Shown here: one piece after another, positions 11,091 to 60,268 of the stretch
How positions within the stretch are numbered: the first letter of the stretch is position 1
Layout of the letters: the number at the start of each line of letters is the position of its first letter
From: Candidatus Shapirobacteria bacterium
GTDB lineage: Bacteria; Patescibacteriota; Microgenomatia; UBA12405
Assembly: GCA_041661765.1 (NCBI GenBank)
Contig: JBAZTV010000001.1
Span: 300,791 to 364,790, forward strand
Direction: 5' to 3'
Length of the DNA stretch: 64,000 nt
The notes under the pieces: generated by a model
Database searches by the model: none
What the model was told of the DNA's origin: nothing
The model's input: only the letters and a program-made list of their open reading frames with translations
Translations under genes and position numbers: made by a program

Positions 11091-13022
11091 ATGGAAGATA
11101 TTTTAGAAGGTTTAAACCCAAATCAAAAAGAAGCAGTTATCCATATTGGCTCTCCTTTGCTTTTATTAGCTGGAGCTGGTTCTGGTAAAACTCGAGTTTT
11201 AACTCACCGTGTAGCCTATTTTATTCAAAAAAAAATTGCCAAACCATCAGAAATTTTACTTCTCACTTTCACCAATAAGGCCGCCGAGGAGATGAGAAAC
11301 CGTACTAATAGATTAATTGTAGAGACGCCCCGACGGGGCGTCTCTACAACTGATAAAAATAATAAATCTTTATTAAAACAAAATATTTTTGCTGGAACTT
11401 TTCATTCTTTTTGCTGTCGAGTTTTACGTGCCGATGGCAATAATATTGGCATTCCCCCTAAATTTGTTATTTACGACTCAAATGATCAGGAAAATTTAAT
11501 CAAAAATATTCTTCACGAACTTGGCTTAACTACTAAAGAATTTAAACCTTCCAGCGTCTTATATTATATCGAAGCCGCAAAAAATTCTTTTCAAACTCCA
11601 AAAGACATGATTGCCCAAAGTCATGGTTTTTGGCAAGATTATGCCAGTAAAATTTATTCTCGTTACCAACAAAAACTATTTGAATTTCATGCTCTCGATT
11701 TTAACGATCTTTTATTTAAAACCGTTGAATTATTTTTACAATATCCAGATGTTTTGGCTAAATATCAAGATATTTATAAATTTATTATGGTTGATGAATA
11801 TCAAGACACTAATCAAATTCAATATCTTCTAACCAAACTTTTAGCCAAAAAATACAACCAAATTACTGTTGTTGGCGATGCTTCGCAGGCAATTTATGGT
11901 TGGCGCGGTGCCGATTATCGCAATCTTGTTAGTTTTACTACCGATTTCAAAAATACCAAAGTTATTAATCTTGAAGAAAACTATCGTTCCACTCAAATTA
12001 TTCTCGATGCTGCCAATACAGTCATTTCTAAAAATAATTCTCATCCAATTTTAAAATTATTCACTCAAAAAAAATCAGAAGATAAAATAAAAATTTTTGA
12101 AGCCGAATCAGAGGTTGCCGAGGCTGACTTTACTGCTTCCAAAATTAAATTTATTAATGATAATTTAAAAATTCCTTTGCGAAATATTGCCGTTCTTTAC
12201 CGGATGAATGCTCAATCGCGTGTTTTAGAAGAAGCCTTTTTGCGTCAGAGCATCCCTTATGTTTTATTAGGTGGGATTCGTTTTTATGAGCGTGCCGAAA
12301 TCAAAGATATTTTATCGATGCTTCGTTTTGCCAGTAATCCTGCAGATCATATTTCCGAAGAGAGAATCGAAAAAGCATTAGGCAAACGCAAAAAAGCAGT
12401 TCTAATTAATCATCTTGAAGATATGGATTTAGAAAACCTCACTTCACTTCAAATACTAGAATCATTGGTTGTAAATTCTGGCTATCTTAATAAATTTGAT
12501 GCTAAAGATGAGGAAGATCAGAAAAGAATTGAAAATATTAAAGAATTAAAATCAGTTGCTGCCGCACATCCTCAATTAAGTGCTTTTTTAGAAAATATCA
12601 CTTTAGTTCAACAAGAATATTCTCTTCAAGAAAAAAATAAGAAAAAAGAAAAACGCGACGGAGTTAAACTAATGACTCTTCACAGTGCCAAAGGTTTGGA
12701 GTTTGAAGTTGTTTTTATGGTTGGTTTTGAAGAGGGAATTTTACCTCACTCTCGCTGCCTAATTAACGAATCAGAAATCGAAGAAGAACGTCGTCTTTGT
12801 TATGTTGGTATTACTCGTGCGAAAGATTATCTTTATATTTCATATGCCAATAAACGTCTATTTTTCGGTAAAAGTAGCCTCAATGAACCGAGTCGATTTT
12901 TAGCCGATATTCCTCAAGAATTAGTTGAATTTGAGGAAAGTTTAGAAACCGTTCATGATTATCGCCATCCCAGAAAATCCAAAGACGATGATGACATCAT
13001 TTATGATCCCGATATATACTAA
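11091..13022 (+). CDS. UvrD/PcrA-family ATP-dependent DNA helicase
   Basis: Walker A AGAGSGKTRVL, DEYQDTN (motif II), later helicase motifs (GDASQAIYGWRGA, TLHSAKGLEF, GITRAKD); contains in-frame REP hairpin insertion at 11317..11349. Confidence 0.85.
   Translation: MEDILEGLNPNQKEAVIHIGSPLLLLAGAGSGKTRVLTHRVAYFIQKKIAKPSEILLLTFTNKAAEEMRNRTNRLIVETPRRGVSTTDKNNKSLLKQNIFAGTFHSFCCRVLRADGNNIGIPPKFVIYDSNDQENLIKNILHELGLTTKEFKPSSVLYYIEAAKNSFQTPKDMIAQSHGFWQDYASKIYSRYQQKLFEFHALDFNDLLFKTVELFLQYPDVLAKYQDIYKFIMVDEYQDTNQIQYLLTKLLAKKYNQITVVGDASQAIYGWRGADYRNLVSFTTDFKNTKVINLEENYRSTQIILDAANTVISKNNSHPILKLFTQKKSEDKIKIFEAESEVAEADFTASKIKFINDNLKIPLRNIAVLYRMNAQSRVLEEAFLRQSIPYVLLGGIRFYERAEIKDILSMLRFASNPADHISEERIEKALGKRKKAVLINHLEDMDLENLTSLQILESLVVNSGYLNKFDAKDEEDQKRIENIKELKSVAAAHPQLSAFLENITLVQQEYSLQEKNKKKEKRDGVKLMTLHSAKGLEFEVVFMVGFEEGILPHSRCLINESEIEEERRLCYVGITRAKDYLYISYANKRLFFGKSSLNEPSRFLADIPQELVEFEESLETVHDYRHPRKSKDDDDIIYDPDIY
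11317..11349. repeat. REP hairpin inserted in-frame in UvrD/PcrA helicase gene: TTGTAGAGACGCC-CCGACGG-GGCGTCTCTACAA
   Basis: 13-bp perfect stem, 7-nt loop; GC-rich island in AT-rich CDS; translated as ...VETPRRGVSTTDK... Confidence 0.7.
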
Positions 13023-24710: not shown

Positions 24711-26639
24711 TCAGCCGGCTCCGCCACCTCCTCCACCGCCGCCGCCTCCGCCACCCCCAGAGGCTCCACCTGACGATCCGGATCCGGAAGCACCATAACT
24801 TGAACTGGCCGCTGTTGAAATACTACTAAGGGCAGAGGATAAAGAAGACAAACCGCTTGAAAAATCACCAAAATCACCCATATTGCCACACCAATACGTT
24901 GTCATTATAATTTGGTCATTACTGTTAGTAAAATTAACTGGCAGTGCACTTATTGCTTTTATCGAAATTCCCAAAGCTGTTCCATAAACCAAATATTTTT
25001 CCCACAAAATTATTGAATCAATTGGATAATCTTTAGTTATGCCATATTCTTTCATGTGTTTTTTAAAAGCCAACCATTTAGCCGTTTCTTCACTTCCAAT
25101 TTTTGTCCTCTTTTCTCCAAATATTTTCAGATTCATTGTTACAATCGCAAAAAACATTAAAACAAAACCGCCAAAAAATCCAAGAATTATTAGTTTTATT
25201 GAGTTCAAATATGAACCTATAACCGTGCCAGATATAAATTCGATAAACATTAAAAACAATAACAATGCTCCCACTCGTGTATAATTTTTTATTGAATGAG
25301 AAGTTTTATCAAAATAACCTTCTTTTAAATTTTCTTGAAAAACTGCATCAGAAAAATGTTTAAAAAAATCATAACTTTCAGTTCGGTGTGTAGAACACCA
25401 CACAGAAATATCTTTTAATTTAACCCCTTCAATTTCTTGTCCGCCCAAATTAACTTTGGTTCGCTTTACTGACCCTAAGAAATCAAAAACACGACCTTCA
25501 ATTTCAGATGTTTCACTTATTTTTTTATTTAGCGGTACCAAGTAATAGTTATAATCTTTTAAAATAAAACCTTCCTTTTGGTCACTTCTCATGATTTTAT
25601 AAAATCGATGTTGGACTAAAGATAAAATCGTCGCGGTAAATGAGGTAGGAGATAAATATTTATTAGTACTAATTAATTGTTCAATTTGGGCTGGATCAAT
25701 ATCGCTTGGTGGCTCCCACAATCTTCCCGACAAACTTACTTCCGGTAATTTTGAATCTTTTCCAAATTTTATAAATAGTTTTATTTGTTTAACAAATAAA
25801 ACTATTCCCAGTATTAATATTCCTGTCAAAATAATAAAAAAACCTGTTGTTAGATTATTATTTTTTTGTTTCTGTTTTTCGGTTTGATCAATAAAATTTT
25901 GTTCCTGGGTTTCAATTTCTGATTTATTTAAACTTCCAACAACCCCATTAGTAAAAATATTTTTTGGTAATAAAATTCTAGATTCAAAAAAAGTTCCCGG
26001 CCACAAATTACCGACCTCATATGTCACTTTACTGGAGTCAGGAATTGACACAATCCCATCCAATGGTCCATGCGCCCAAGCTTTTATTTCCGACCCCGGA
26101 ACATTTGCTGGCAAATTAATTTGGGCAAAAACATTATTTTGGTTTATTTCCCAATCATCACCAATCAATTTCCAATACAATTCTGCCGTATCGGTATTTA
26201 AGGTAACAGCGTTACTAACATCATATTTAATTTTAAAAGTTTTCTCTCCACTATTAGTTTGATAAAACCACTTAATATAATATTTATCCGCCTGTTCATC
26301 AACATAAAAACTGGAAATTGGTTTAGTTATATCGTATTGCCCTTTATTTTTAGTATTCAATTCCCTATAACATTCATTTTCATCACAAACTTCAAAGTTT
26401 TTTAAAATATAAGGTTCACTTCTGTCACCGGTTTTATTTATATATTCATAGGCAAAGGTATAACTTCCGTTAAAAGAAAAAACTCTTGTTTCTTCAATAT
26501 TCATCGAACCGTCAGTATTTAATTGACCTAGAATATTTACACTATCAATTGAGTAAGACTTATCCGCAGCATTAACCGGACTGAACGAAAATAATAATAG
26601 AAGTACTCCCAAAATTCTAAAATATTTTGTTAATCTCAT
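24711..26639 (-). CDS. DUF2207-family membrane protein with C-terminal poly-Gly/Ser tail
   Basis: Signal peptide, N-terminal beta-rich domain, central TM helices, tail SSYGASGSGSSGGASGGGGGGGGGGGGGAG (encoded by GC-rich run 24715..24800). Confidence 0.55.
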   Translation of the reverse strand: MRLTKYFRILGVLLLLFSFSPVNAADKSYSIDSVNILGQLNTDGSMNIEETRVFSFNGSYTFAYEYINKTGDRSEPYILKNFEVCDENECYRELNTKNKGQYDITKPISSFYVDEQADKYYIKWFYQTNSGEKTFKIKYDVSNAVTLNTDTAELYWKLIGDDWEINQNNVFAQINLPANVPGSEIKAWAHGPLDGIVSIPDSSKVTYEVGNLWPGTFFESRILLPKNIFTNGVVGSLNKSEIETQEQNFIDQTEKQKQKNNNLTTGFFIILTGILILGIVLFVKQIKLFIKFGKDSKLPEVSLSGRLWEPPSDIDPAQIEQLISTNKYLSPTSFTATILSLVQHRFYKIMRSDQKEGFILKDYNYYLVPLNKKISETSEIEGRVFDFLGSVKRTKVNLGGQEIEGVKLKDISVWCSTHRTESYDFFKHFSDAVFQENLKEGYFDKTSHSIKNYTRVGALLLFLMFIEFISGTVIGSYLNSIKLIILGFFGGFVLMFFAIVTMNLKIFGEKRTKIGSEETAKWLAFKKHMKEYGITKDYPIDSIILWEKYLVYGTALGISIKAISALPVNFTNSNDQIIMTTYWCGNMGDFGDFSSGLSSLSSALSSISTAASSSYGASGSGSSGGASGGGGGGGGGGGGGAG

Positions 26640-30643: not shown

Positions 30644-31366
30644 ATGGACTCAAAAGACAGAATCATTATCCCTATCGACAACAGTGGTCTCTACAAGGCT
30701 ATCAAAACAGTAGAGACACTAAAGCCCTATGTTGGAATGTTTAAATTTGGTTTAGAGATGATTACCTTTATAGTAACCAAAATAGCAACCACAGGGGATA
30801 TTACTTTGGCTAGAAAAGTCAAAGAATTATTTACTCTTGTCGAGGGTCAATTGTTTTGGGATGGCAAATGGGCAGATATTCCTAACACTGTCGGTCAGGC
30901 CGCTTTGGCTATTCAATCGTTGAATCCTAAATTAATCAATATTCATGCGTCATGCGGTGTGACGGCTATTAAGGAGGTGGTTAAAAACAAAGGGTTTAGT
31001 CAGGTTTTAGGAGTTACGGTTTTGACTAGTATTGACTCAGAAGAATGCGTTTCGATTTTTGGAAATAAACCAGGAATCAAAGTTGTTGAATTTGCCAAAT
31101 TTTTGATTGATTCTGGAGCTGATGGAATAATTTGTTCACCACAAGAATTAAGATTATTGGAAGGTTTTCCTTTAATAAAAGTTACTCCAGGGGTTAGACC
31201 AGTATGGGCATCAGTAAATGATCAAAAACGAGTTATGACCCCAAGTGAAGCAGTTAAAGCTGGTGCTGATTATCTTGTTATCGGCCGGCCTATTACTAGT
31301 CCACCAAATGGCATAACTCAGTTAGAGGCAGTTAAAAAAATAATTGAAGAATTGGAGGCAGTTTAA
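30644..31366 (+). CDS. pyrF: orotidine 5'-phosphate decarboxylase
   Basis: IIPIDNS..., KFGLE, ADIPNTV, GVRP...QKRVMTP...GADYLVIGRPI motifs. Confidence 0.75.
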   Translation: MDSKDRIIIPIDNSGLYKAIKTVETLKPYVGMFKFGLEMITFIVTKIATTGDITLARKVKELFTLVEGQLFWDGKWADIPNTVGQAALAIQSLNPKLINIHASCGVTAIKEVVKNKGFSQVLGVTVLTSIDSEECVSIFGNKPGIKVVEFAKFLIDSGADGIICSPQELRLLEGFPLIKVTPGVRPVWASVNDQKRVMTPSEAVKAGADYLVIGRPITSPPNGITQLEAVKKIIEELEAV

Positions 31367-32071: not shown

Positions 32072-32111
32072 ACCGGTAGGTATTTTGTTTTCAAACAAAA
32101 CATCTACCGGT
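32072..32111. repeat. 40-nt imperfect palindrome ACCGGTAG...CTACCGGT (GTAG/CTAC-terminated, REP-like) between pyrE-like gene and hrcA; likely terminator hairpin
   Basis: Read directly: ACCGGTAGGTATTTTGTTT-TC-AAACAAAACATCTACCGGT. Confidence 0.45.
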
Positions 32112-32126
32112 TTTCTATTTCCCCTC

Positions 32127-32163
32127 TTGACACCAATTAGCACTCAGTCTATTATATTGCTAA
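32127..32163 (+). promoter_or_regulatory. hrcA promoter (TTGACA-17-TATTAT) overlapping a degenerate CIRCE operator (TTAGCACTC-N9-TATTGCTAA)
   Basis: -35 32127..32132, -10 32150..32155; CIRCE left arm perfect, right arm 6/9 vs GAGTGCTAA, 32137..32163. Confidence 0.5.
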
Positions 32164-33379: not shown

Positions 33380-33406
33380 GTAGAGACGACCAATATGGGC
33401 GTCTCA
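33380..33406. repeat. degenerate REP hairpin (GTAGAGACG-ACCAATATGGG-CGTCTC)
   Basis: Between grpE stop and dnaK start. Confidence 0.45.
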
Positions 33407-35384: not shown

Positions 35385-35412
35385 GTAGAGACGCCATGCA
35401 TGGCGTCTCTAC
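35385..35412. repeat. REP hairpin, 28-nt perfect palindrome GTAGAGACGCCATG|CATGGCGTCTCTAC
   Basis: Between dnaK stop and dnaJ start. Confidence 0.6.
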
Positions 35413-36345: not shown

Positions 36346-36369
36346 GGGGCTGAGAAAAGCCCCTTTTTT
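36346..36369 (+). terminator. intrinsic-terminator-like hairpin + T6 in nusA leader (candidate attenuator)
   Basis: GGGGCT-GAGAAA-AGCCCC followed by TTTTTT, located between the promoter and the nusA RBS (AAAGGAGA). Confidence 0.45.
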
Positions 36370-36391: not shown

Positions 36392-37384
36392 ATGGATTTA
36401 AAAAAACTACCTAAAACAGAATTTGCCGCAGCTGTGGCTCAAATTGCTGGCGAAAGAAATATTGATGTTCAATCTATTTTAGATTCAATTGAATTTGGAC
36501 TTATCTCAGCGTATAAACGTGACCAAAAAGAACATGGCACCATTGTCCCAGACGAAGATATTTTTACCGCCGAATTAGCTCCAGAAACCGGATCATTCAA
36601 GGTCTACAAAATTGATGGTGATAAAAAAACAGATGTTACTCCTCCTGGTTTTGGTAGAATTGCTGCTCAAACTGCTAAACAAGTTATCGACCAAAGAATC
36701 CATGAGGTTGAAAAAGAATCAATTGTTTCTGAGTTTGAAAAGAAAATGGGAACCCTTATCTCTTGTATTGTCTTAAAAAACGATCCTTACAAAATGGTTG
36801 TTGGTGTTGGTAAGACCGAAGGAATTTGTCCAAAAGATGAGCAAATTAGAGACGAAATTATTCCTCTTGGAGCTAAAAAATTATTTTTATTAAAAGAAAT
36901 CATTCGTGACGAAACTGGTCGCAGTGAAATCATTTTATCTCGAAGAGATAATGCTTTCGTTAAAGAATTATTTTCTCGCGAAGTTCCAGAAGTTGCTAAT
37001 GGTTCGGTTGTAATCGAAAAGATAGCGAGAACCGCTGGCGAAAGAACTAAAGTTGCCGTTTCTTCAAACCAAGCTGGAATCGATCCAGTTGGTTCTTGTA
37101 TTGGCCAAAAAGGTTCTCGTATTCAAGCAATTTTAAGTGAATTACCAATGGAAGAAAAGGTTGATGTAGTCGCTTTTTCTCAAAATATAACTCAATTTAT
37201 TACTCAAGCTCTTTCTCCAGCTCAAAATGTCAAAGTTGTTGAAATCAAAAACAACTGTGCTTTTGTCACTGTTCCAGAATCGCAATTAGCTCTGGCAATT
37301 GGCGGTGGCGGTGAAAATGTTCGCTTGGCTGGTCAATTAGTTGGCCTTGAAATAAAACTTACCGACGATAAATCTTCTAAGTAA
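36392..37384 (+). CDS. nusA: transcription termination/antitermination factor NusA
   Basis: ATG 36392 after AAAGGAGA RBS; S1 and two KH domains (GKTEG...; IGQKGSRIQ). Confidence 0.85.
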   Translation: MDLKKLPKTEFAAAVAQIAGERNIDVQSILDSIEFGLISAYKRDQKEHGTIVPDEDIFTAELAPETGSFKVYKIDGDKKTDVTPPGFGRIAAQTAKQVIDQRIHEVEKESIVSEFEKKMGTLISCIVLKNDPYKMVVGVGKTEGICPKDEQIRDEIIPLGAKKLFLLKEIIRDETGRSEIILSRRDNAFVKELFSREVPEVANGSVVIEKIARTAGERTKVAVSSNQAGIDPVGSCIGQKGSRIQAILSELPMEEKVDVVAFSQNITQFITQALSPAQNVKVVEIKNNCAFVTVPESQLALAIGGGGENVRLAGQLVGLEIKLTDDKSSK

Positions 37385-39585: not shown

Positions 39586-39612
39586 AAAAGCCCCGTTCCT
39601 CGGGGCTTTTTT
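39586..39612. terminator. bidirectional rho-independent terminator
   Basis: AAAAGCCCCG-TTCCT-CGGGGCTTTTTT (A-tract before, T-tract after). Confidence 0.7.
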
Positions 39613-46193: not shown

Positions 46194-46793
46194 GTGCCAT
46201 TAATCAATATTCAAACCAAATTTGCTGACAAATTTAAATTAAAATCATCTCGTCTTCAAAACTGGAATTATTCAACTCCAGGATATTACTTCATCACCAT
46301 CTGTACCCACAACCACAATAATTTTTTTGGAAAAATTATTAACAACAAGATGGAATTGTCAAAACGTGGTGAAATTACTAAATCTGAATTATTAAAAACA
46401 TTTGAAATCAGAAAAAATATTAAATTACATGAATGGGTAATTATGCCAAATCATGTGCATGTTTTAATGGAAATTGAAAAACAAAATTATCAACACAATA
46501 AATGTAGAGACGTAGCGCGCTACGTCTCTACAAAACTAAACAACATCTCTACAGAAGAAAATAATAAAAATTTTTCAAAAATTTCACCCAAACCAAATTC
46601 AATTTCATCAATAATACGTTCATTCAAATCAGCCGTTACCCATCAAATAAATCCCAAAACAATATTTTTTGCTTAGCAACCCCGTTTCCACGATCAGATC
46701 ATTAAAGATGAAAAAGAATATTTTTTAATCAAAAAATACATTCAAAATAATATAAAAAATTGGGATAAAGATAATTTTTTTAGTTTAAAGTAA
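46194..46793 (+). pseudogene. REP-associated tyrosine transposase (RAYT / IS200-like TnpA_REP), disrupted by in-frame REP insertion and an internal TAG
   Basis: HUH motif MPNHVHVLM; ORF stops at TAG 46674..46676 exactly where RAYTs have the conserved Trp of (I/L)WQxRF(H/Y)D; downstream frame continues QPRFHDQIIKDEKEYFLIKKYIQNNIKNW... to TAA at 46791..46793; REP hairpin 46503..46532 sits in-frame inside the gene. Confidence 0.6.
46503..46532. repeat. REP hairpin inside RAYT gene: TGTAGAGACGTAGCG|CGCTACGTCTCTACA
   Basis: Perfect 30-nt palindrome; translated in-frame as ...KCRDVARYVSTK... Confidence 0.7.
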
Positions 46794-51705: not shown

Positions 51706-51894
51706 GTAGAGACGCATTGTATGCGTCTCTTGGTAATAAATTCAAAATAAAACATAATTAATTTAGAGACGCACGCAGTGCGTCTCTACTGACGATAAAT
51801 AAAATTTTATAGAGACGTTCTACAGAACGTCTCTATTGATATAAAAATTGAATAATTTGTTTAGTAGTAGGAACACGCCATGGCGTGTTCCTAC
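51706..51894. repeat. tandem cluster of four REP hairpins (GTAGAGACG-type x3 plus GTAGGAACACGCC variant)
   Basis: 51706..51732 GTAGAGACGCAT-TGT-ATGCGTCTCT; 51764..51788 TAGAGACGCAC-GCA-GTGCGTCTCTA; 51810..51835 TAGAGACGTTC-TACA-GAACGTCTCTA; 51867..51894 GTAGGAACACGCCA|TGGCGTGTTCCTAC. Confidence 0.7.
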
Positions 51895-51926: not shown

Positions 51927-53741
51927 ATGAAAGCCCGTGATTTAAAGGAAAAATTCATTAATTTTTTTGTTTCTCAAAAACACATCGAAATTCCCTCCAG
52001 TAATTTAACTCCCGAAAATGATCCGACCACTTTGTTTATTTCCGCCGGCATGCAACAATTAGTTCCATATTTCACCGGAAAACCACATCCATTAGGTAAG
52101 AGACTAACAGATGTTCAAAAATGCGTTAGGACCGGCGATATTGATGAAGTTGGAGATTCATTTCATCATACTTTTTTTGAAATGCTTGGCAACTGGTCTC
52201 TTGGTGATTACTTTAAAAACGAAATGCTTCCTTGGAGTTATCAATTTTTAACCAAAGAATTAAATATTGATCCAAAAAATCTTTTTGTCACTTGTTTTAC
52301 TGGTAACAAAAACGCTCCCAAAGATGAATTTAGTGCTTCTGTTTGGAAATCTTTAGGCATGAATCAAGACAATATTATTTTTTTGGAAGATAATTGGTGG
52401 GGTCCAGCCGGTCTAACAGGTCCATGTGGTCCAGATAGTGAAATGTTTATCGATACTCATCCAGAATTACCAAAAGTCGATTTTAAAACAGGGGATAAAC
52501 AAGGCCGTTATTTGGAAATTTGGAACGATGTTTTTTTGGAATATAACAAAAATGCCGATGATACTTTTTCAAAATTAACTCAGCAAAATGTCGATACCGG
52601 TATGGGTGTTGAAAGAACAATTACAATTTTATCCGGTTTTTCGGACAATTATTTAACCGACATCTGGCAACCAATCATTAAAAAAATAGAAGAATTATCG
52701 GAAAAAAATTATAATGAAAGCCGTCCTGTCAAGGGAGGTGGTTCCGATGAAATCGGAGACGGAGGGTTTAAAAAATCCATTCGTATTATTGCCGACCACA
52801 TCAAGGCTTCTGTTTTTATTATTGCCGACGGCGTTGAACCCACTAATAAAGAAACCGGTTATGTTCTCCGCCGTCTAATTCGTCGTGCTATTCGTCAAGG
52901 GAAATTATTAGGCATTGAAACCAATTTTATTTCTCAAATTGCCGATGCAGTTTTAGATAATCAAGACAATTACGCCGGTGTTTACCCCGAATTAGATGCC
53001 AATCGCGATAAAATTATTTCAATCTTAGATGCTGAAGAAAATAAATTCAGAAAAACTTTAAACAATGGCCTTCGTGAAATCAATAAATTAATCGAAAGAA
53101 ATAAAAGTGTTTCTGGTAAAGAAGCTTTTACCCTTTATGAAAGTTTCGGTTTTCCAATCGAAATGATTGAAGAGGAACTTCAAAAAAACAATTTAACCTT
53201 AAATAAGGAAGAATTTGAAGAAGCAAAATTAGCTCATCAAAAGCAGTCACAAACTTTGTCTGCTGGCAAATTCAAATCCGGTCTAGCAGATAATTCTGAA
53301 ATCATTACCAAATATCACACCGCCACTCATTTATTACATTCCGCTTTAAGAAAAATTTTAGGCGACAATGTTCAACAATCTGGTTCCAATATCACTTCTG
53401 AAAGATTACGTTTTGATTTCTCTTATTTCGAAAAATTAACCGACGACCAATTAAAACAAATCCAAGATTTAATTAATCAACAAATTAAATTAGATTTACT
53501 AGTCGTCGTTGAAACAATGCCTTTTGTCGAAGCTCAGTCACAAAATGCTTTAGCTTTTTTTGGCAATAAATACCCTGAAATTGTCACGGTTTATACCATT
53601 GGTTCGGCAGAAAATTATTTTTCCAAAGAAGTTTGCACTGGCCCTCATGTAAGCCATTTATCGGAACTTGGTAATTTTGAAATCCAAAAAGAAGAATCAG
53701 CGGGGAGTGGTAAACGTCGTATCTACGCCATCTTAAATTAG
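51927..53741 (+). CDS. alaS: alanyl-tRNA synthetase, compact form (catalytic + tRNA-recognition + editing domains, no C-Ala domain)
   Basis: N-terminal AlaRS class II core (FHHTFFEMLGNWS, WGPAG), editing-domain HxxxH (HTATHLLH) and CxxxH (CTGPHVSH) motifs; 604 aa. Confidence 0.85.
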   Translation: MKARDLKEKFINFFVSQKHIEIPSSNLTPENDPTTLFISAGMQQLVPYFTGKPHPLGKRLTDVQKCVRTGDIDEVGDSFHHTFFEMLGNWSLGDYFKNEMLPWSYQFLTKELNIDPKNLFVTCFTGNKNAPKDEFSASVWKSLGMNQDNIIFLEDNWWGPAGLTGPCGPDSEMFIDTHPELPKVDFKTGDKQGRYLEIWNDVFLEYNKNADDTFSKLTQQNVDTGMGVERTITILSGFSDNYLTDIWQPIIKKIEELSEKNYNESRPVKGGGSDEIGDGGFKKSIRIIADHIKASVFIIADGVEPTNKETGYVLRRLIRRAIRQGKLLGIETNFISQIADAVLDNQDNYAGVYPELDANRDKIISILDAEENKFRKTLNNGLREINKLIERNKSVSGKEAFTLYESFGFPIEMIEEELQKNNLTLNKEEFEEAKLAHQKQSQTLSAGKFKSGLADNSEIITKYHTATHLLHSALRKILGDNVQQSGSNITSERLRFDFSYFEKLTDDQLKQIQDLINQQIKLDLLVVVETMPFVEAQSQNALAFFGNKYPEIVTVYTIGSAENYFSKEVCTGPHVSHLSELGNFEIQKEESAGSGKRRIYAILN

Positions 53742-58258: not shown

Positions 58259-60268
58259 TTAGATTAATTTAACATTTGGATAATTAATTCTAACTATTTT
58301 TCTCTCTTCTTCATTCATATTTACAAGATTAATAAAACCACTGATATTTTTTGGTAATGCCAATCCTTTTGCAGATTTGAGATTAAAAAGAATAAGATTA
58401 CCATTAATACTTTTCGGTAAAACCAATCCTTCAGCCGATTTAAGACCAGAAAGATCTAGACCACCATTAATAGTTTCTGATAAAACCAATCCTTTAATAG
58501 ATTTAAGACCGGAGAGCTTAAGATTACCATTAATACTTTTCGGTAAAACCAATCCTTCAGCCGATTTAAGACCAGAAAGATCTAGACCACCATTAATAGT
58601 TTCTGATAAAACCAATCCTTTAATAGATTTAAGACCGGAGAGCTTAAGATTACCATTAATACTTTTCGGTAAAACCAATCCTTCAGCCGATTTAAGACCA
58701 GAAAGATCTAGACTACCATTAATACTTTTTGGTAATATCAATCCTTTTGCGGATTCGAGATTAAAAAGATCTAGATCACCATTAATAGTTTCTGGTAAAA
58801 CCAATCCTTTAATAGATTCAAGACCAGAGAGAGTAATGCCACCATTAATACTTTTTGGTAATATCAACCCTTCAGCCGATTTAAGACCAGATAAAACAAA
58901 ATCACCATTAATATTTTCTGGTAAAACTAATCCTTTTATAGATGAAAGATTATAAAGTTTGAGATTACCATAATGAAATTTAATACCCCCTTTTAGAGCC
59001 TCTTCTTTTGTGACACTAATCTGATCTTTAAAGTAACCAGTAATAAAAGAAATATCGGATTTAATATCTCTTTTGTCTATAATTTCTTTAATTCTAGGAT
59101 CCTTTTTATATCCAAAACCTTCAATTCCACTATTTATTTCATAAATAAACAGTAATTCTTCTTTAGAAAGTTCTTCTTGATCATCTTTAACTTTTTTATC
59201 AATTAAAGTCAGAAATTTCATATCAGAATCTTTTTTATCAAACTTTTCCCCACCAGGAAGTTGACGATATTTTTCTTTAGCAATATCAGTCATATTACCT
59301 TCAAGATTTTGATCAGCATTAATACCCCTAACTTCAGCAACTTGACCATTTTCCATCCGAATAGCAATCCTAGGAATAGTGTTCTTATTATCTTGGTCTT
59401 TTGAATAATAAACATAAAAGTCACCTTTTATTAATTGTATTCTGGACGTTTCTTCCCCAGCTGTACACCAACCAGTTCCATGTCCTTGTAGTGATTCATA
59501 AAGTGGAATATGGTCATCACCTTGATTAAATTTAGTCCATTCACCTTCTATTTTTTCCTTGTTTTCTTTAGAGGCTGGTGTCACTTTATCAATAGCATAA
59601 GCATAAATTTTAGAAAAATTAGCTGAATCTAGAATCCTATTTAATTCTTCGTTATCATGTTTTTCGTGTTTAAGATAATGTTTTTCCAATACATCATAAG
59701 TAAAAGATAAGGCTTCTCTATTTAAGTCTGGAAAAATATTTGTAGTTTTTTTACTCCTTTTACCAAATTCTTTTTTATCTTTATCATAAGCTCCCATTTT
59801 GACTACATTCCTCATAGTATAGTATTTAAACCAAGAGGGATAAATAGAATCATTATCAGTTAAATAGTCTATCCAAGTATCTAATGATTGTTTTTGATCA
59901 TTATAAATGGTTTCACCAGCTTCTTTTTTATCAATATGCCCTAAATCACCTGCTTGACCTCTTTCTCTGGCTACCTTAAGTTGTAATTCAAAATAAGAAT
60001 CTGGAATATTATTTTTATCTATTAGAGCATCTGGATAAATAAACATCCTTTTAAATAAGTTTAATTTTCTTTCTTTAATATCTTCATTTGAATCATTAAA
60101 AAAAACATCCAATCTATCTAGGTAAACTTCATTTCTATCTGCGGGATTATTAGGAGTTTTAATACCTTCTTTTCTTTGTTTACTTTCTACCAACCTTTTA
60201 ACTTGAGCTGATTTTTGTAATTCAGGATATTTAAAATTTAAAAATTCTCCTCCACCTCTTTCACTCAT
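58259..60268 (-). CDS. protein with unknown ~400-aa N-terminal domain and C-terminal array of 21-residue leucine-rich repeats (G-L-x-L-P-x-x-I-N-G-x-L-x-L-S-G-L-K-S-A-E), no signal peptide
   Basis: Repeat array encoded by 63/126-bp tandem DNA repeats 58330..58960; N-terminal domain contains HGTGWCTAGEET segment. Confidence 0.6.
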   Translation of the reverse strand: MSERGGGEFLNFKYPELQKSAQVKRLVESKQRKEGIKTPNNPADRNEVYLDRLDVFFNDSNEDIKERKLNLFKRMFIYPDALIDKNNIPDSYFELQLKVARERGQAGDLGHIDKKEAGETIYNDQKQSLDTWIDYLTDNDSIYPSWFKYYTMRNVVKMGAYDKDKKEFGKRSKKTTNIFPDLNREALSFTYDVLEKHYLKHEKHDNEELNRILDSANFSKIYAYAIDKVTPASKENKEKIEGEWTKFNQGDDHIPLYESLQGHGTGWCTAGEETSRIQLIKGDFYVYYSKDQDNKNTIPRIAIRMENGQVAEVRGINADQNLEGNMTDIAKEKYRQLPGGEKFDKKDSDMKFLTLIDKKVKDDQEELSKEELLFIYEINSGIEGFGYKKDPRIKEIIDKRDIKSDISFITGYFKDQISVTKEEALKGGIKFHYGNLKLYNLSSIKGLVLPENINGDFVLSGLKSAEGLILPKSINGGITLSGLESIKGLVLPETINGDLDLFNLESAKGLILPKSINGSLDLSGLKSAEGLVLPKSINGNLKLSGLKSIKGLVLSETINGGLDLSGLKSAEGLVLPKSINGNLKLSGLKSIKGLVLSETINGGLDLSGLKSAEGLVLPKSINGNLILFNLKSAKGLALPKNISGFINLVNMNEEERKIVRINYPNVKLI
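58393..58770. repeat. three near-identical 126-bp tandem direct repeats (period confirmed at 58393/58519/58645), coding for LRR units on the minus strand
   Basis: Read directly; third copy diverges after ~70 nt; flanked by more diverged 63-bp units. Confidence 0.8.

Follow-up and report, generated by a model that had tools for sequence, protein, structure and literature searches.

A probable REP/RAYT system with double-foot REPs in Candidatus Shapirobacteria

Introduction

Repetitive extragenic palindromic (REP) elements and the accompanying RAYTs (REP-associated tyrosine transposases, or TnpAREP) are seen as passengers of the genome that are long-lived and inherited vertically; most studies of them concern Proteobacteria. 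Here we analyze a 64,000-nt stretch of DNA (positions 300,791 to 364,790 of contig JBAZTV010000001.1, hereafter the window) from a metagenome-assembled genome labeled by NCBI as Candidatus Shapirobacteria, Microgenomates group of Patescibacteria. The label fits the initial annotation of the window, made from its letters alone, which had supposed a small-genome bacterium. Eight short palindromes in the window are very probably double-foot REPs and part of a REP/RAYT system of the type known as TnpAREP subclass 2.4 (Bertels Group 4).

Passages of Quentin et al. (2018, BMC Genomics 19:475) attribute to subclass 2.4 "double foot" REPs, with GT[AG]G at the 5' end and C[TC]AC at the 3' end, and describe in-frame insertion in tnpAREP as well as the taxonomic spread of the subclass. 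Entries in Table S1 of that study include GTAGAGACGCACGGCCGTGCGTCTCTAC for Chloroflexus aggregans, the cognate REP of a subclass 2.4 TnpAREP, next to ACL24330.1, and sister 28-mers with GGGGCG or AGACA feet. REPs within genes, many of them replication and repair genes, were reported by Di Nocera et al. (2013). Group 4 RAYTs are flanked, according to Bertels et al. (2017), by only modestly repeated 16-mers, a count that variable centers such as those presented below would explain.

Since the type of element, the enzyme family, the in-frame insertions and the exact foot are already in the literature, the element is not of a new type. What is new here is the host lineage, together with details of site turnover, of the centers and of half-REPs. 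A literature search for RAYT or REP in combination with Patescibacteria or Candidate Phyla Radiation (CPR) returned nothing relevant, which is weak negative evidence; a search with the sequence string itself returned primer lists only.

Results

The palindromes form a family dispersed in the window

Eight GC-rich palindromes of 26 to 29 nt are present at five places between 11.3 and 51.9 kb, spread over 40 kb of the 64-kb window. They constitute a real family, dispersed within the window. The pattern TAGAGACG-N{3,12}-CGTCTCTA has five exact matches, with centers spanning N9-11, against none in 100 dinucleotide-preserving shuffles, and the 9-nt sequence GTAGAGACG, when up to one mismatch is allowed, is found 20 times where 3.2 occurrences are expected. 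Two of the one-mismatch matches, at 36846 and 50524, lack a partner arm and were discarded. Hairpin folding energies of the eight copies range from -12 to -28 kcal/mol; compared with shuffled controls, the z-scores are between -3.6 and -9.5. The surrounding DNA is about 32% G+C and, as first described, these G+C-rich hairpins form GC islands in an AT-rich background.

The copies are built on a common plan: a 9-nt foot starting with GTAG (GTAGAGACG), a center of 9 to 11 nt and a complementary foot ending with CTAC (CGTCTCTAC). The GTAG...CTAC combination is found at 11319, 35385, 46504 and 51867. A single foot is left in the copies at 33380, 51706 and 51763, and both feet are mutated (ATAG...CTAT) in the copy at 51809. 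The feet are the conserved part of the element; the centers differ in every copy (CCCCGaCGGGG, ACCaatatGGG, CCATGCATGG, TAGCGCGCTA, CATtgtATG, CACgcaGTG, TTCTACAGAA). Each center is itself palindromic, so that the stem carries on inward. Six of the eight copies are intergenic and two lie in frame within genes, one in pcrA/uvrD and the other in a RAYT gene. All of the intergenic copies are downstream of plus-strand genes, and the first copy past each gene (grpE, dnaK and a 105-aa open reading frame, ORF) starts 9 to 12 nt beyond the stop codon.

The initial annotation had listed nine copies, with start coordinates that are off by 0 to 2 nt. Eight are confirmed, whereas the ninth, at 32072, is AT-rich, does not have GTAG at its foot, is followed by a T-rich tail and is probably a terminator. 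The arms assigned to the whole family, (G)TAGAGACG/CGTCTCTA(C), are carried by three of the four copies clustered at 51706-51894; the fourth has the foot GTAGGAACA/TGTTCCTAC. The CGTCTC hexamer is indeed embedded in the copies, and no separate meaning was found for it. An origin from tRNA, the alternative raised at the outset, was checked by scanning the entire window for tRNAs and, at gathering thresholds, for Rfam families; neither gave a match, which rules out remnants of tRNAs or of known RNAs. The sequence pair GGTCTCTAC...GTAGAGACA at 30686-30718, which resembles REP halves turned inside out, falls in normal coding sequence of pyrF (OMPdecase domain, residues 6-228) and was hence taken as a chance occurrence.

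A RAYT gene with an in-frame REP

The NHxH...YIxNNP ORFs that adjoin the same REP in Bacteroidota and other loci were used as tblastn queries against the window. One strong match resulted, at 46200-46784, for which the E values are 1e-28 to 1e-37 and the identity is 33-38%. The match identifies a RAYT/TnpAREP gene on the plus strand (46194..46793) with the HuH motif NHVH, the Tyr motif YIQNNI and a TAG in frame at 46674-46676. A motif regex (NHxH...YIxNNP) had missed this gene because of that stop and of the change of P to I. The initial annotation had deduced a REP/RAYT system from the GTAG foot alone, with no RAYT gene noticed; the gene at 46194-46793, the REP in frame within it, the REPs flanking RAYT in relatives, the published entry for this type of element as a cognate REP of subclass 2.4 and the in-frame copies in genes support this deduction.

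The RAYT product scores 26.8 bits with Pfam Y1_Tnp (PF01797), for which the gathering score is 23, and matches NCBIfam REP_Tyr_transpos with an E value of 4.6e-16. Many of its 260 homologues are named "REP element-mobilizing transposase RayT" (JGI) or "transposase [Candidatus Shapirobacteria bacterium]" (NCBI). The best PDB match of a profile of the family is a weak one to E. coli TnpAREP, 4ER8 (E 3e-4), in which WQPRF and YI..NP are aligned. In an alignment of 31 sequences, P85, H87 and H89 of the HuH motif (MPNHVHVL in the window) are invariant and N86 is nearly so. Residues Y182, I183, N185 and N186 are also invariant in the RAYT alignment; the corresponding motif of the window copy reads KKYIQNNI, with the Tyr present and the P of YIxNNP replaced by I. 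REP-derived peptides, read in two of the three possible frames, are present in most homologues in the stretch that separates the HuH from the Tyr motif (CRDVARYVST, CRDVLQNVST, VETPRGASL, VETHCVRL).

The WQ motif is absent from the window copy, as TAG replaces the W codon (FFA*QPRF, 46674-46676). The W is kept in 30 of 30 aligned homologues and in a paralogue, P0242, described below. Stop usage among window ORFs of at least 200 aa (TAA 34, TAG 5, TGA 4) makes TAG an ordinary stop in this DNA. Beyond the TAG, the sequence is still in frame and conserved. Altogether, this looks like a recent inactivation by a TGG-to-TAG change, or possibly an error; judging from the alignment, the ancestral form of the gene had the WQ feature, which is disrupted in the present copy. 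An ENA contig (L001) is the same as the window except in a collapsed repeat. Being identical over the shared stretch, it is no independent check of the TAG codon.

An intact RAYT paralogue of 197 aa (P0242, MFA6184796.1) is encoded on the same 445,083-bp contig as the truncated window copy (MFA6184859.1). It has the W of the WQ motif and the sequence YIINNP. Overall identity between the two proteins is 91%, rising to 100% in residues 6-158 with the REP peptide included; complete identity over this stretch in combination with differing ends suggests a recent gene conversion between the two RAYT loci. Because of this intact paralogue, the genome most likely still has a working enzyme, and P0242 is predicted to be the probable source of RAYT activity.

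Gene order and site turnover in related genomes

The gene order rnj-RAYT-proS-ftsK-HTH-x-x-alaS-723aa-sortase (HTH, helix-turn-helix) is common to the window and to three loci from relatives (L122, L123 and L124). As read from the gene maps, this synteny is the vertical, housekeeping-like behavior described for RAYTs. L122 and L123 have REPs on either side of RAYT plus one inside it, and L124 has one upstream and one inside. The REPtron arrangement, in which the gene is flanked by its own REPs, is hence found in L122 and L123 and on the upstream side in L124; no REPs were found in the flanks of the window RAYT. In a fourth locus with a different context (L126, queA-RAYT-mscL), one REP is inside RAYT and another overlaps the stop codon; this locus, too, was classed with those in which REPs flank the gene on either side. 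The family is tied to a RAYT gene both here and in relatives.

Some of these insertions coincide with the ends of the gene. The stop codon of the L126 RAYT is the TAG of the REP foot, and in L122 (9986-10010) an upstream REP that is truncated, GTAGAGACGCCATATATGGCAC, holds the RAYT ATG (MALVDNP) within its center. Directly downstream of RAYT, the Shapirobacteria-like genomes L123 (10650-10833) and L126 (10627-10700) have tandem arrays of 3' half-REPs. Their unit is CTACGTCTCTAC followed by 9-12 nt, with a period of 21-24 nt; the L123 array comprises 8.7 copies at 21 nt.

Comparison of orthologous sites shows that REP copies have been gained, lost or replaced among related genomes. The REP in pcrA/uvrD falls in the part of the gene for a loop that follows helicase motif Ia (TFTNKAA) and precedes TFHS; in Geobacillus PcrA, a short linker is found at this position. 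In the closest PcrA homologue (P0122/L248, 86% identity) the site is empty; in the next one (P0121/L249, 84%) it is occupied by another palindrome, GTACGGGCG-CATCATGATG-CGCCCCTC, with a GGGGCG foot. Likewise, PcrA P0124 carries VETSRRGVST and its close relative P0125 has no insertion. The spacer upstream of alaS contains four REPs in 230 nt in the window; it measures 21 nt in L122 and is taken up by an unrelated 153-aa ORF in L124 and by a DUF559 gene in L123. Presence/absence polymorphism, which the initial annotation had proposed to look for in related genomes, is thus found in PcrA and in the alaS spacer. Its claim that genes had been invaded in frame also holds: REP copies lie in frame in two window genes, pcrA/uvrD and RAYT, and close relatives differ at the PcrA site.

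At two other sites, it is the center that varies. L124 and the window are 82% identical at the DNA level. In the dnaK/dnaJ spacer, the two share the same feet around unrelated centers, CCATGCATGG in the window vs TCCCGCTGGGG in L124, and the same is true of the site inside RAYT (TAGCGCGCTA vs TTCCGCAGAA). The flanks of both orthologous L124 sites are about 90% identical to the window.

The same element in other phyla

A set of genomes comprising one per species (596 Gb) was scanned with the pattern GTAGAGACG-N3-12-CGTCTCTAC. At least 120 loci were found, in Bacteroidota, Cyanobacteria, Chloroflexota, Spirochaetota, relatives of Geobacter, Acidobacteriota and others. Under a uniform model, 18 specified bases yield 596e9 x 10 / 4^18 = ~90 matches in 596 Gb by chance, so the raw count proves nothing. 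The make-up of the matches is more informative. Among the matches listed, the center is 10 or 11 nt long in 124 of 130 and perfectly palindromic in 89 of 130 (vs a chance of 0.001 each), six loci have 2-4 copies, and an NHxH...YIxNNP ORF lies beside or around the REP in 7 of 120 unrelated loci, all found by the REP pattern alone.

As the feet are fixed by the search, only the center is informative on pairing. In a set of 65 distinct 28-nt elements, each of the five center pairs has 24-39 sequences changed on both sides. Pairing cells amount to 96.7%, compared to 83% in shuffles, a value reached in none of 500 shuffles if one takes the observed figure as the mark. Complementarity extends to the two innermost pairs, located where a hairpin would have its loop, in 57 and 52 of the 65 elements. 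Palindromy through the dyad exceeds what hairpin stability alone demands.

Such symmetry would also suit a protein that reads duplex DNA. The palindromes could be sites for a dimeric protein (an operator, a nucleoid site or a restriction-type site with CGTCTC) and be conserved for that protein rather than mobile. The two invariant 9-nt half-sites are inverted, the palindromy continues through the dyad, beyond the needs of a hairpin, and two copies lie in the hrcA-grpE-dnaK-dnaJ operon. However, the true operator of this operon is a different sequence. The CIRCE (controlling inverted repeat of chaperone expression) consensus bound by HrcA upstream of heat-shock genes is TTAGCACTC-N9-GAGTGCTAA, and the sole CIRCE-like site in the window (TTAGCACTCAGTCTATTATATTGCTAA, 32137-32163, 2 mismatches) overlaps the -10 box of the promoter TTGACA-17-TATTAT, which lies just upstream of hrcA. 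This is the predicted HrcA operator of the operon. CIRCE is accordingly ruled out as the identity of the dnaK-operon copies: the feet of the REPs differ from it, the REPs lie after genes, and the CIRCE-like site is elsewhere. More generally, a dimer site has no need for a palindromic spacer of variable sequence, the copies are found after genes or within ORFs and not at promoters, and no restriction-modification gene lies alongside among the ORFs examined. Association with RAYT and the published REP classification fit the data better, and we consider a duplex-DNA site extremely unlikely.

The element also turned up in viral sequence collections. In the IMG/VR loci L128-L247, GTAGAGACG-N9-11-CGTCTCTAC occurs in more than 120 viral contigs, for a total of 150 copies, 53 of them with perfectly palindromic centers; the motif regex detected no RAYT-like ORF in these loci. 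The copies in viral contigs may be host-derived DNA, prophage flanks or true phage carriage.

Individual copies and their surroundings

The copy in the pcrA/uvrD ORF (11091-13022) spans 29 nt, 11319..11347, reads GTAGAGACG-CCCCGACGGGG-CGTCTCTAC and encodes the peptide VETPRRGVST in frame at codons 77-86. The copy in the RAYT gene (46504..46531) is a perfect 28-nt palindrome, GTAGAGACG-TAGCGCGCTA-CGTCTCTAC, and encodes CRDVARYVST in frame in the HuH-Tyr interval. A degenerate 3' half-REP, CATCTCTAC, is found on the plus strand at 46544..46552, 12 nt beyond the full REP; this arrangement of a REP plus a half-REP within the RAYT gene is also found in relatives.

Two copies lie in the hrcA-grpE-dnaK-dnaJ operon. 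The first, 33380..33405 on the plus strand, has its 5' foot only, the 3' foot being lost (GTAGAGACG-ACCAATATGGG-CGTCTC); it starts 11 nt past the grpE stop, upstream of dnaK. The second, 35385..35412, is a perfect 28-nt palindrome (GTAGAGACG-CCATGCATGG-CGTCTCTAC), 12 nt past the dnaK stop and upstream of dnaJ. The doubtful ninth candidate, 32072..32111 on the plus strand, is an AT-rich 40-nt palindrome with an internal GTAG...CTAC and the T-rich tail TTTTCTATTT, just before the hrcA promoter and the CIRCE-like operator. From these features, it is probably the terminator of the upstream gene rather than a member of the REP family.

The genuine copies end differently. They are followed by AACTGATAAA, AAATAAAAAA, TTGATGGTTG, TAATAAATTC and similar sequences, with a T tail in none of the eight. 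For lack of T tails, a role as intrinsic terminators, which are G+C-rich hairpins directly followed by a T run, was ruled out. This bears on the possibility that the palindromes are RNA elements of gene ends, either terminators or 3' stabilizers, which evolved in place and share a common foot recognized by a host RNA-binding or processing factor, with no part played by mobility or by RAYT. The position of the copies lends itself to this interpretation, as three independent sites begin 9-12 nt past a stop codon and all of the intergenic copies are downstream of plus-strand genes; moreover, the RNA hairpins would be very stable, and PNPase and RNase J are encoded nearby. However, a terminator scan of the 31-40 kb region, which identified canonical terminators at 36346-36363 and 39586-39610, lists neither of the two copies it covered. 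Nor would elements evolved in place be expected in frame within pcrA and the RAYT gene, with the same foot beside RAYT genes in several phyla, or at sites that are empty or otherwise filled in close relatives. A gene-end origin appears highly improbable on these grounds. Stabilization of RNA following insertion is compatible with a REP/RAYT origin and does not replace it.

The remaining four copies form a cluster of 189 nt (51706-51894), located in a spacer of 230 nt that follows the stop of the 105-aa ORF (51696) and leads up to the start of alaS (51927); the report of four palindromes packed in 190 nt between a small gene and alaS was therefore correct. The first, 51706..51733 on the plus strand (GTAGAGACG-CATTGTATG-CGTCTCTtg), lies 9 nt past the stop of the 105-aa ORF and has an intact 5' foot and a decayed 3' foot (CTTG). 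The second, 51763..51789 (tTAGAGACG-CACGCAGTG-CGTCTCTAC), has its intact GTAG foot on the minus strand (TTAG...CTAC). The third, 51809..51836 (aTAGAGACG-TTCTACAGAA-CGTCTCTAt), has a G-to-A change in both feet (ATAG...CTAT), and its center TTCTACAGAA is similar to the TTCTGCAGAA subfamily. The fourth, 51867..51894 (GTAGGAACA-CGCCATGGCG-TGTTCCTAC), lies 32 nt ahead of the start of alaS. It is perfectly palindromic over 28 nt and has a variant foot, GTAGGAACA, which occurs as a single copy within the window and the related loci checked.

Four repeats of about 28 nt separated by gaps of 19-30 nt are reminiscent of a small array of the CRISPR kind, or of another tandem array. Yet the gaps are irregular, the centers differ among the repeats and so does one foot; identical feet occur singly elsewhere in the window; there is no Rfam match and no cas gene in the neighborhood; and the alaS spacer has unrelated content in relatives. 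The chances that the cluster is such an array are practically negligible.

Three further features of the window are recorded here. The AlaRS encoded downstream of the cluster (51927-53741) has 604 aa, vs 626 aa in L124 and 592 aa in L122 and L123. It contains tRNA-synt_2c and tRNA_SAD domains, and the C-terminal part of the canonical bacterial enzyme is apparently missing. A perfect AT-rich 33-nt palindrome, AATAGTTTTATTTGTT-A-AACAAATAAAACTATT, is found at 25774-25806 in a minus-strand gene for a DUF2207 membrane protein and is unrelated to the GAGACG family. Finally, a 669-aa ORF on the minus strand (58259-60268), with no Pfam hit, has an internal tandem repeat of about 126 nt at 58337-58943. 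This is the repeat where L001 departs from the window, and the copy number there may be misassembled.

Discussion

The data reported here make it very probable that the palindromes are double-foot REPs served by a RAYT of the subclass 2.4 type. By analogy with E. coli TnpAREP and with IS200/IS605 transposases, RAYT would bind the hairpin extruded on single-stranded DNA, be guided by the GTAG tetranucleotide at its foot, and cleave and rejoin the DNA at the foot, so that copies would spread or be replaced. That the 9-nt foot is invariant across phyla while the centers are free suggests an enzyme that reads the foot and the geometry of the stem and not the center.

The intergenic copies are expected to be transcribed, since they lie 9-12 nt past the stops of co-directional genes and two of them within the hrcA-grpE-dnaK-dnaJ operon. 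The transcripts would form very stable RNA hairpins and, by analogy, these could shield the upstream mRNA from 3' exonucleases. Protection of mRNA 3' ends is established for E. coli REPs. As T tails are missing from copies in a genome where canonical terminators exist after dnaJ and elsewhere, an effect on the host is more likely to consist in 3' mRNA protection than in termination.

Several observations weigh against the REP/RAYT interpretation or narrow its basis. The window's RAYT gene is interrupted by a premature stop and lacks REPs on its flanks, and its NCBIfam score (59) lies under the equivalog cut-off of 80. Its placement in subclass 2.4 follows from sequence motifs and the type of REP rather than from phylogeny, and the literature covered reports no biochemical activity for any enzyme of this subclass. 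Not a single center is shared among the eight window copies, which is unexpected for plain copy-and-paste from one master element. Copy number and the ratio of genic to extragenic copies are based on 64 kb of genome, and it is by analogy with E. coli REPs only that a role in mRNA stabilization may be proposed.

The variety of centers could be accommodated if double-foot REPs were modular cassettes, of which RAYT recognizes the feet while the center is regenerated by arm-to-arm templating (fold-back copying) or swapped foot-to-foot. This model would account for the palindromy through the dyad, for centers that are all different in one genome, for the center swaps at orthologous sites and for the half-REP arrays. 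We regard it as speculative and rather unlikely to be right; if true, REPs would propagate in a way not described before, seen here in a minimal genome of the Patescibacteria.

REPs, an intact RAYT and a broken one make up a complete system in Candidatus Shapirobacteria. The REPs thus persist in a lineage whose very small, streamlined genomes have little non-essential DNA, and they are tolerated in frame within a helicase of the essential type and within the gene of their own enzyme. Annotators may want to treat peptides such as VETPRRGVST and CRDVARYVST in Patescibacteria proteins as repeat insertions and not as native sequence. Invariant feet around free centers also offer a clean natural experiment on recognition by subclass 2.4 RAYTs, the basic biology of which is already published. 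In conclusion, these results extend the known range of REP elements to an ultra-small bacterium of the candidate phyla, with no new kind of system involved.

How the palindromes relate to described systems is best seen by moving from the more distant to the nearest. The IS200/IS605 insertion sequences (IS608, ISDra2) have transposases of the same fold family (Y1_Tnp) and obey the same logic of a hairpin plus a guide tetranucleotide on single-stranded DNA. Unlike these, the window gene has no IS ends and no tnpB, its repeats are dispersed on their own, and its position is syntenic rather than multi-copy. Small dispersed repeats (SDR) of Nostoc, as described by Elhai and colleagues in 2008, are reportedly 21-27-nt hairpins that, in cyanobacteria, insert into genes and into each other. 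They bear a possible likeness to the GTAGAGACG element, for which many of the listed genome matches come from cyanobacteria.

In E. coli, the REPs and bacterial interspersed mosaic elements (BIMEs) associated with TnpAREP (YafM; 4ER8; Ton-Hoang 2012, Messing 2012) also have GTAG at the foot of the hairpin, are extragenic, downstream of genes and clustered, and their enzyme is of the HuH/Tyr type. They are, however, imperfect, with one foot, bulges and few types (Y, Z1, Z2), whereas the window palindromes are symmetric, with two feet and free centers. In Pseudomonas, the REPIN (REP doublet forming hairpins)/RAYT systems of Groups 2 and 3 (Bertels and Rainey 2011) similarly consist of short palindromes tied to a vertical, mostly single-copy RAYT at a conserved position, a position paralleled by the rnj-RAYT-proS-ftsK synteny in four genomes. 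REPINs are paired inverted REPs made of highly repeated 16-mers; here, we find a single symmetric palindrome with variable centers and two RAYT paralogues on one contig.

The closest relatives are the subclass 2.4 systems. The published cases differ from the present one in that the window belongs to a Shapirobacteria host of about 32% G+C, its RAYT gene has a stop codon and no flanking REPs, and every center is different. REPs of this subclass such as that of Chloroflexus aggregans, on the other hand, have the same feet, GTAGAGACG/CGTCTCTAC, and the same 28-nt palindromic architecture as the window copies, and its RAYTs have NH[IFV]H, WQ and YIxNNP motifs, an in-frame REP between HuH and Tyr and, as in the relatives of the window, flanking REPs.

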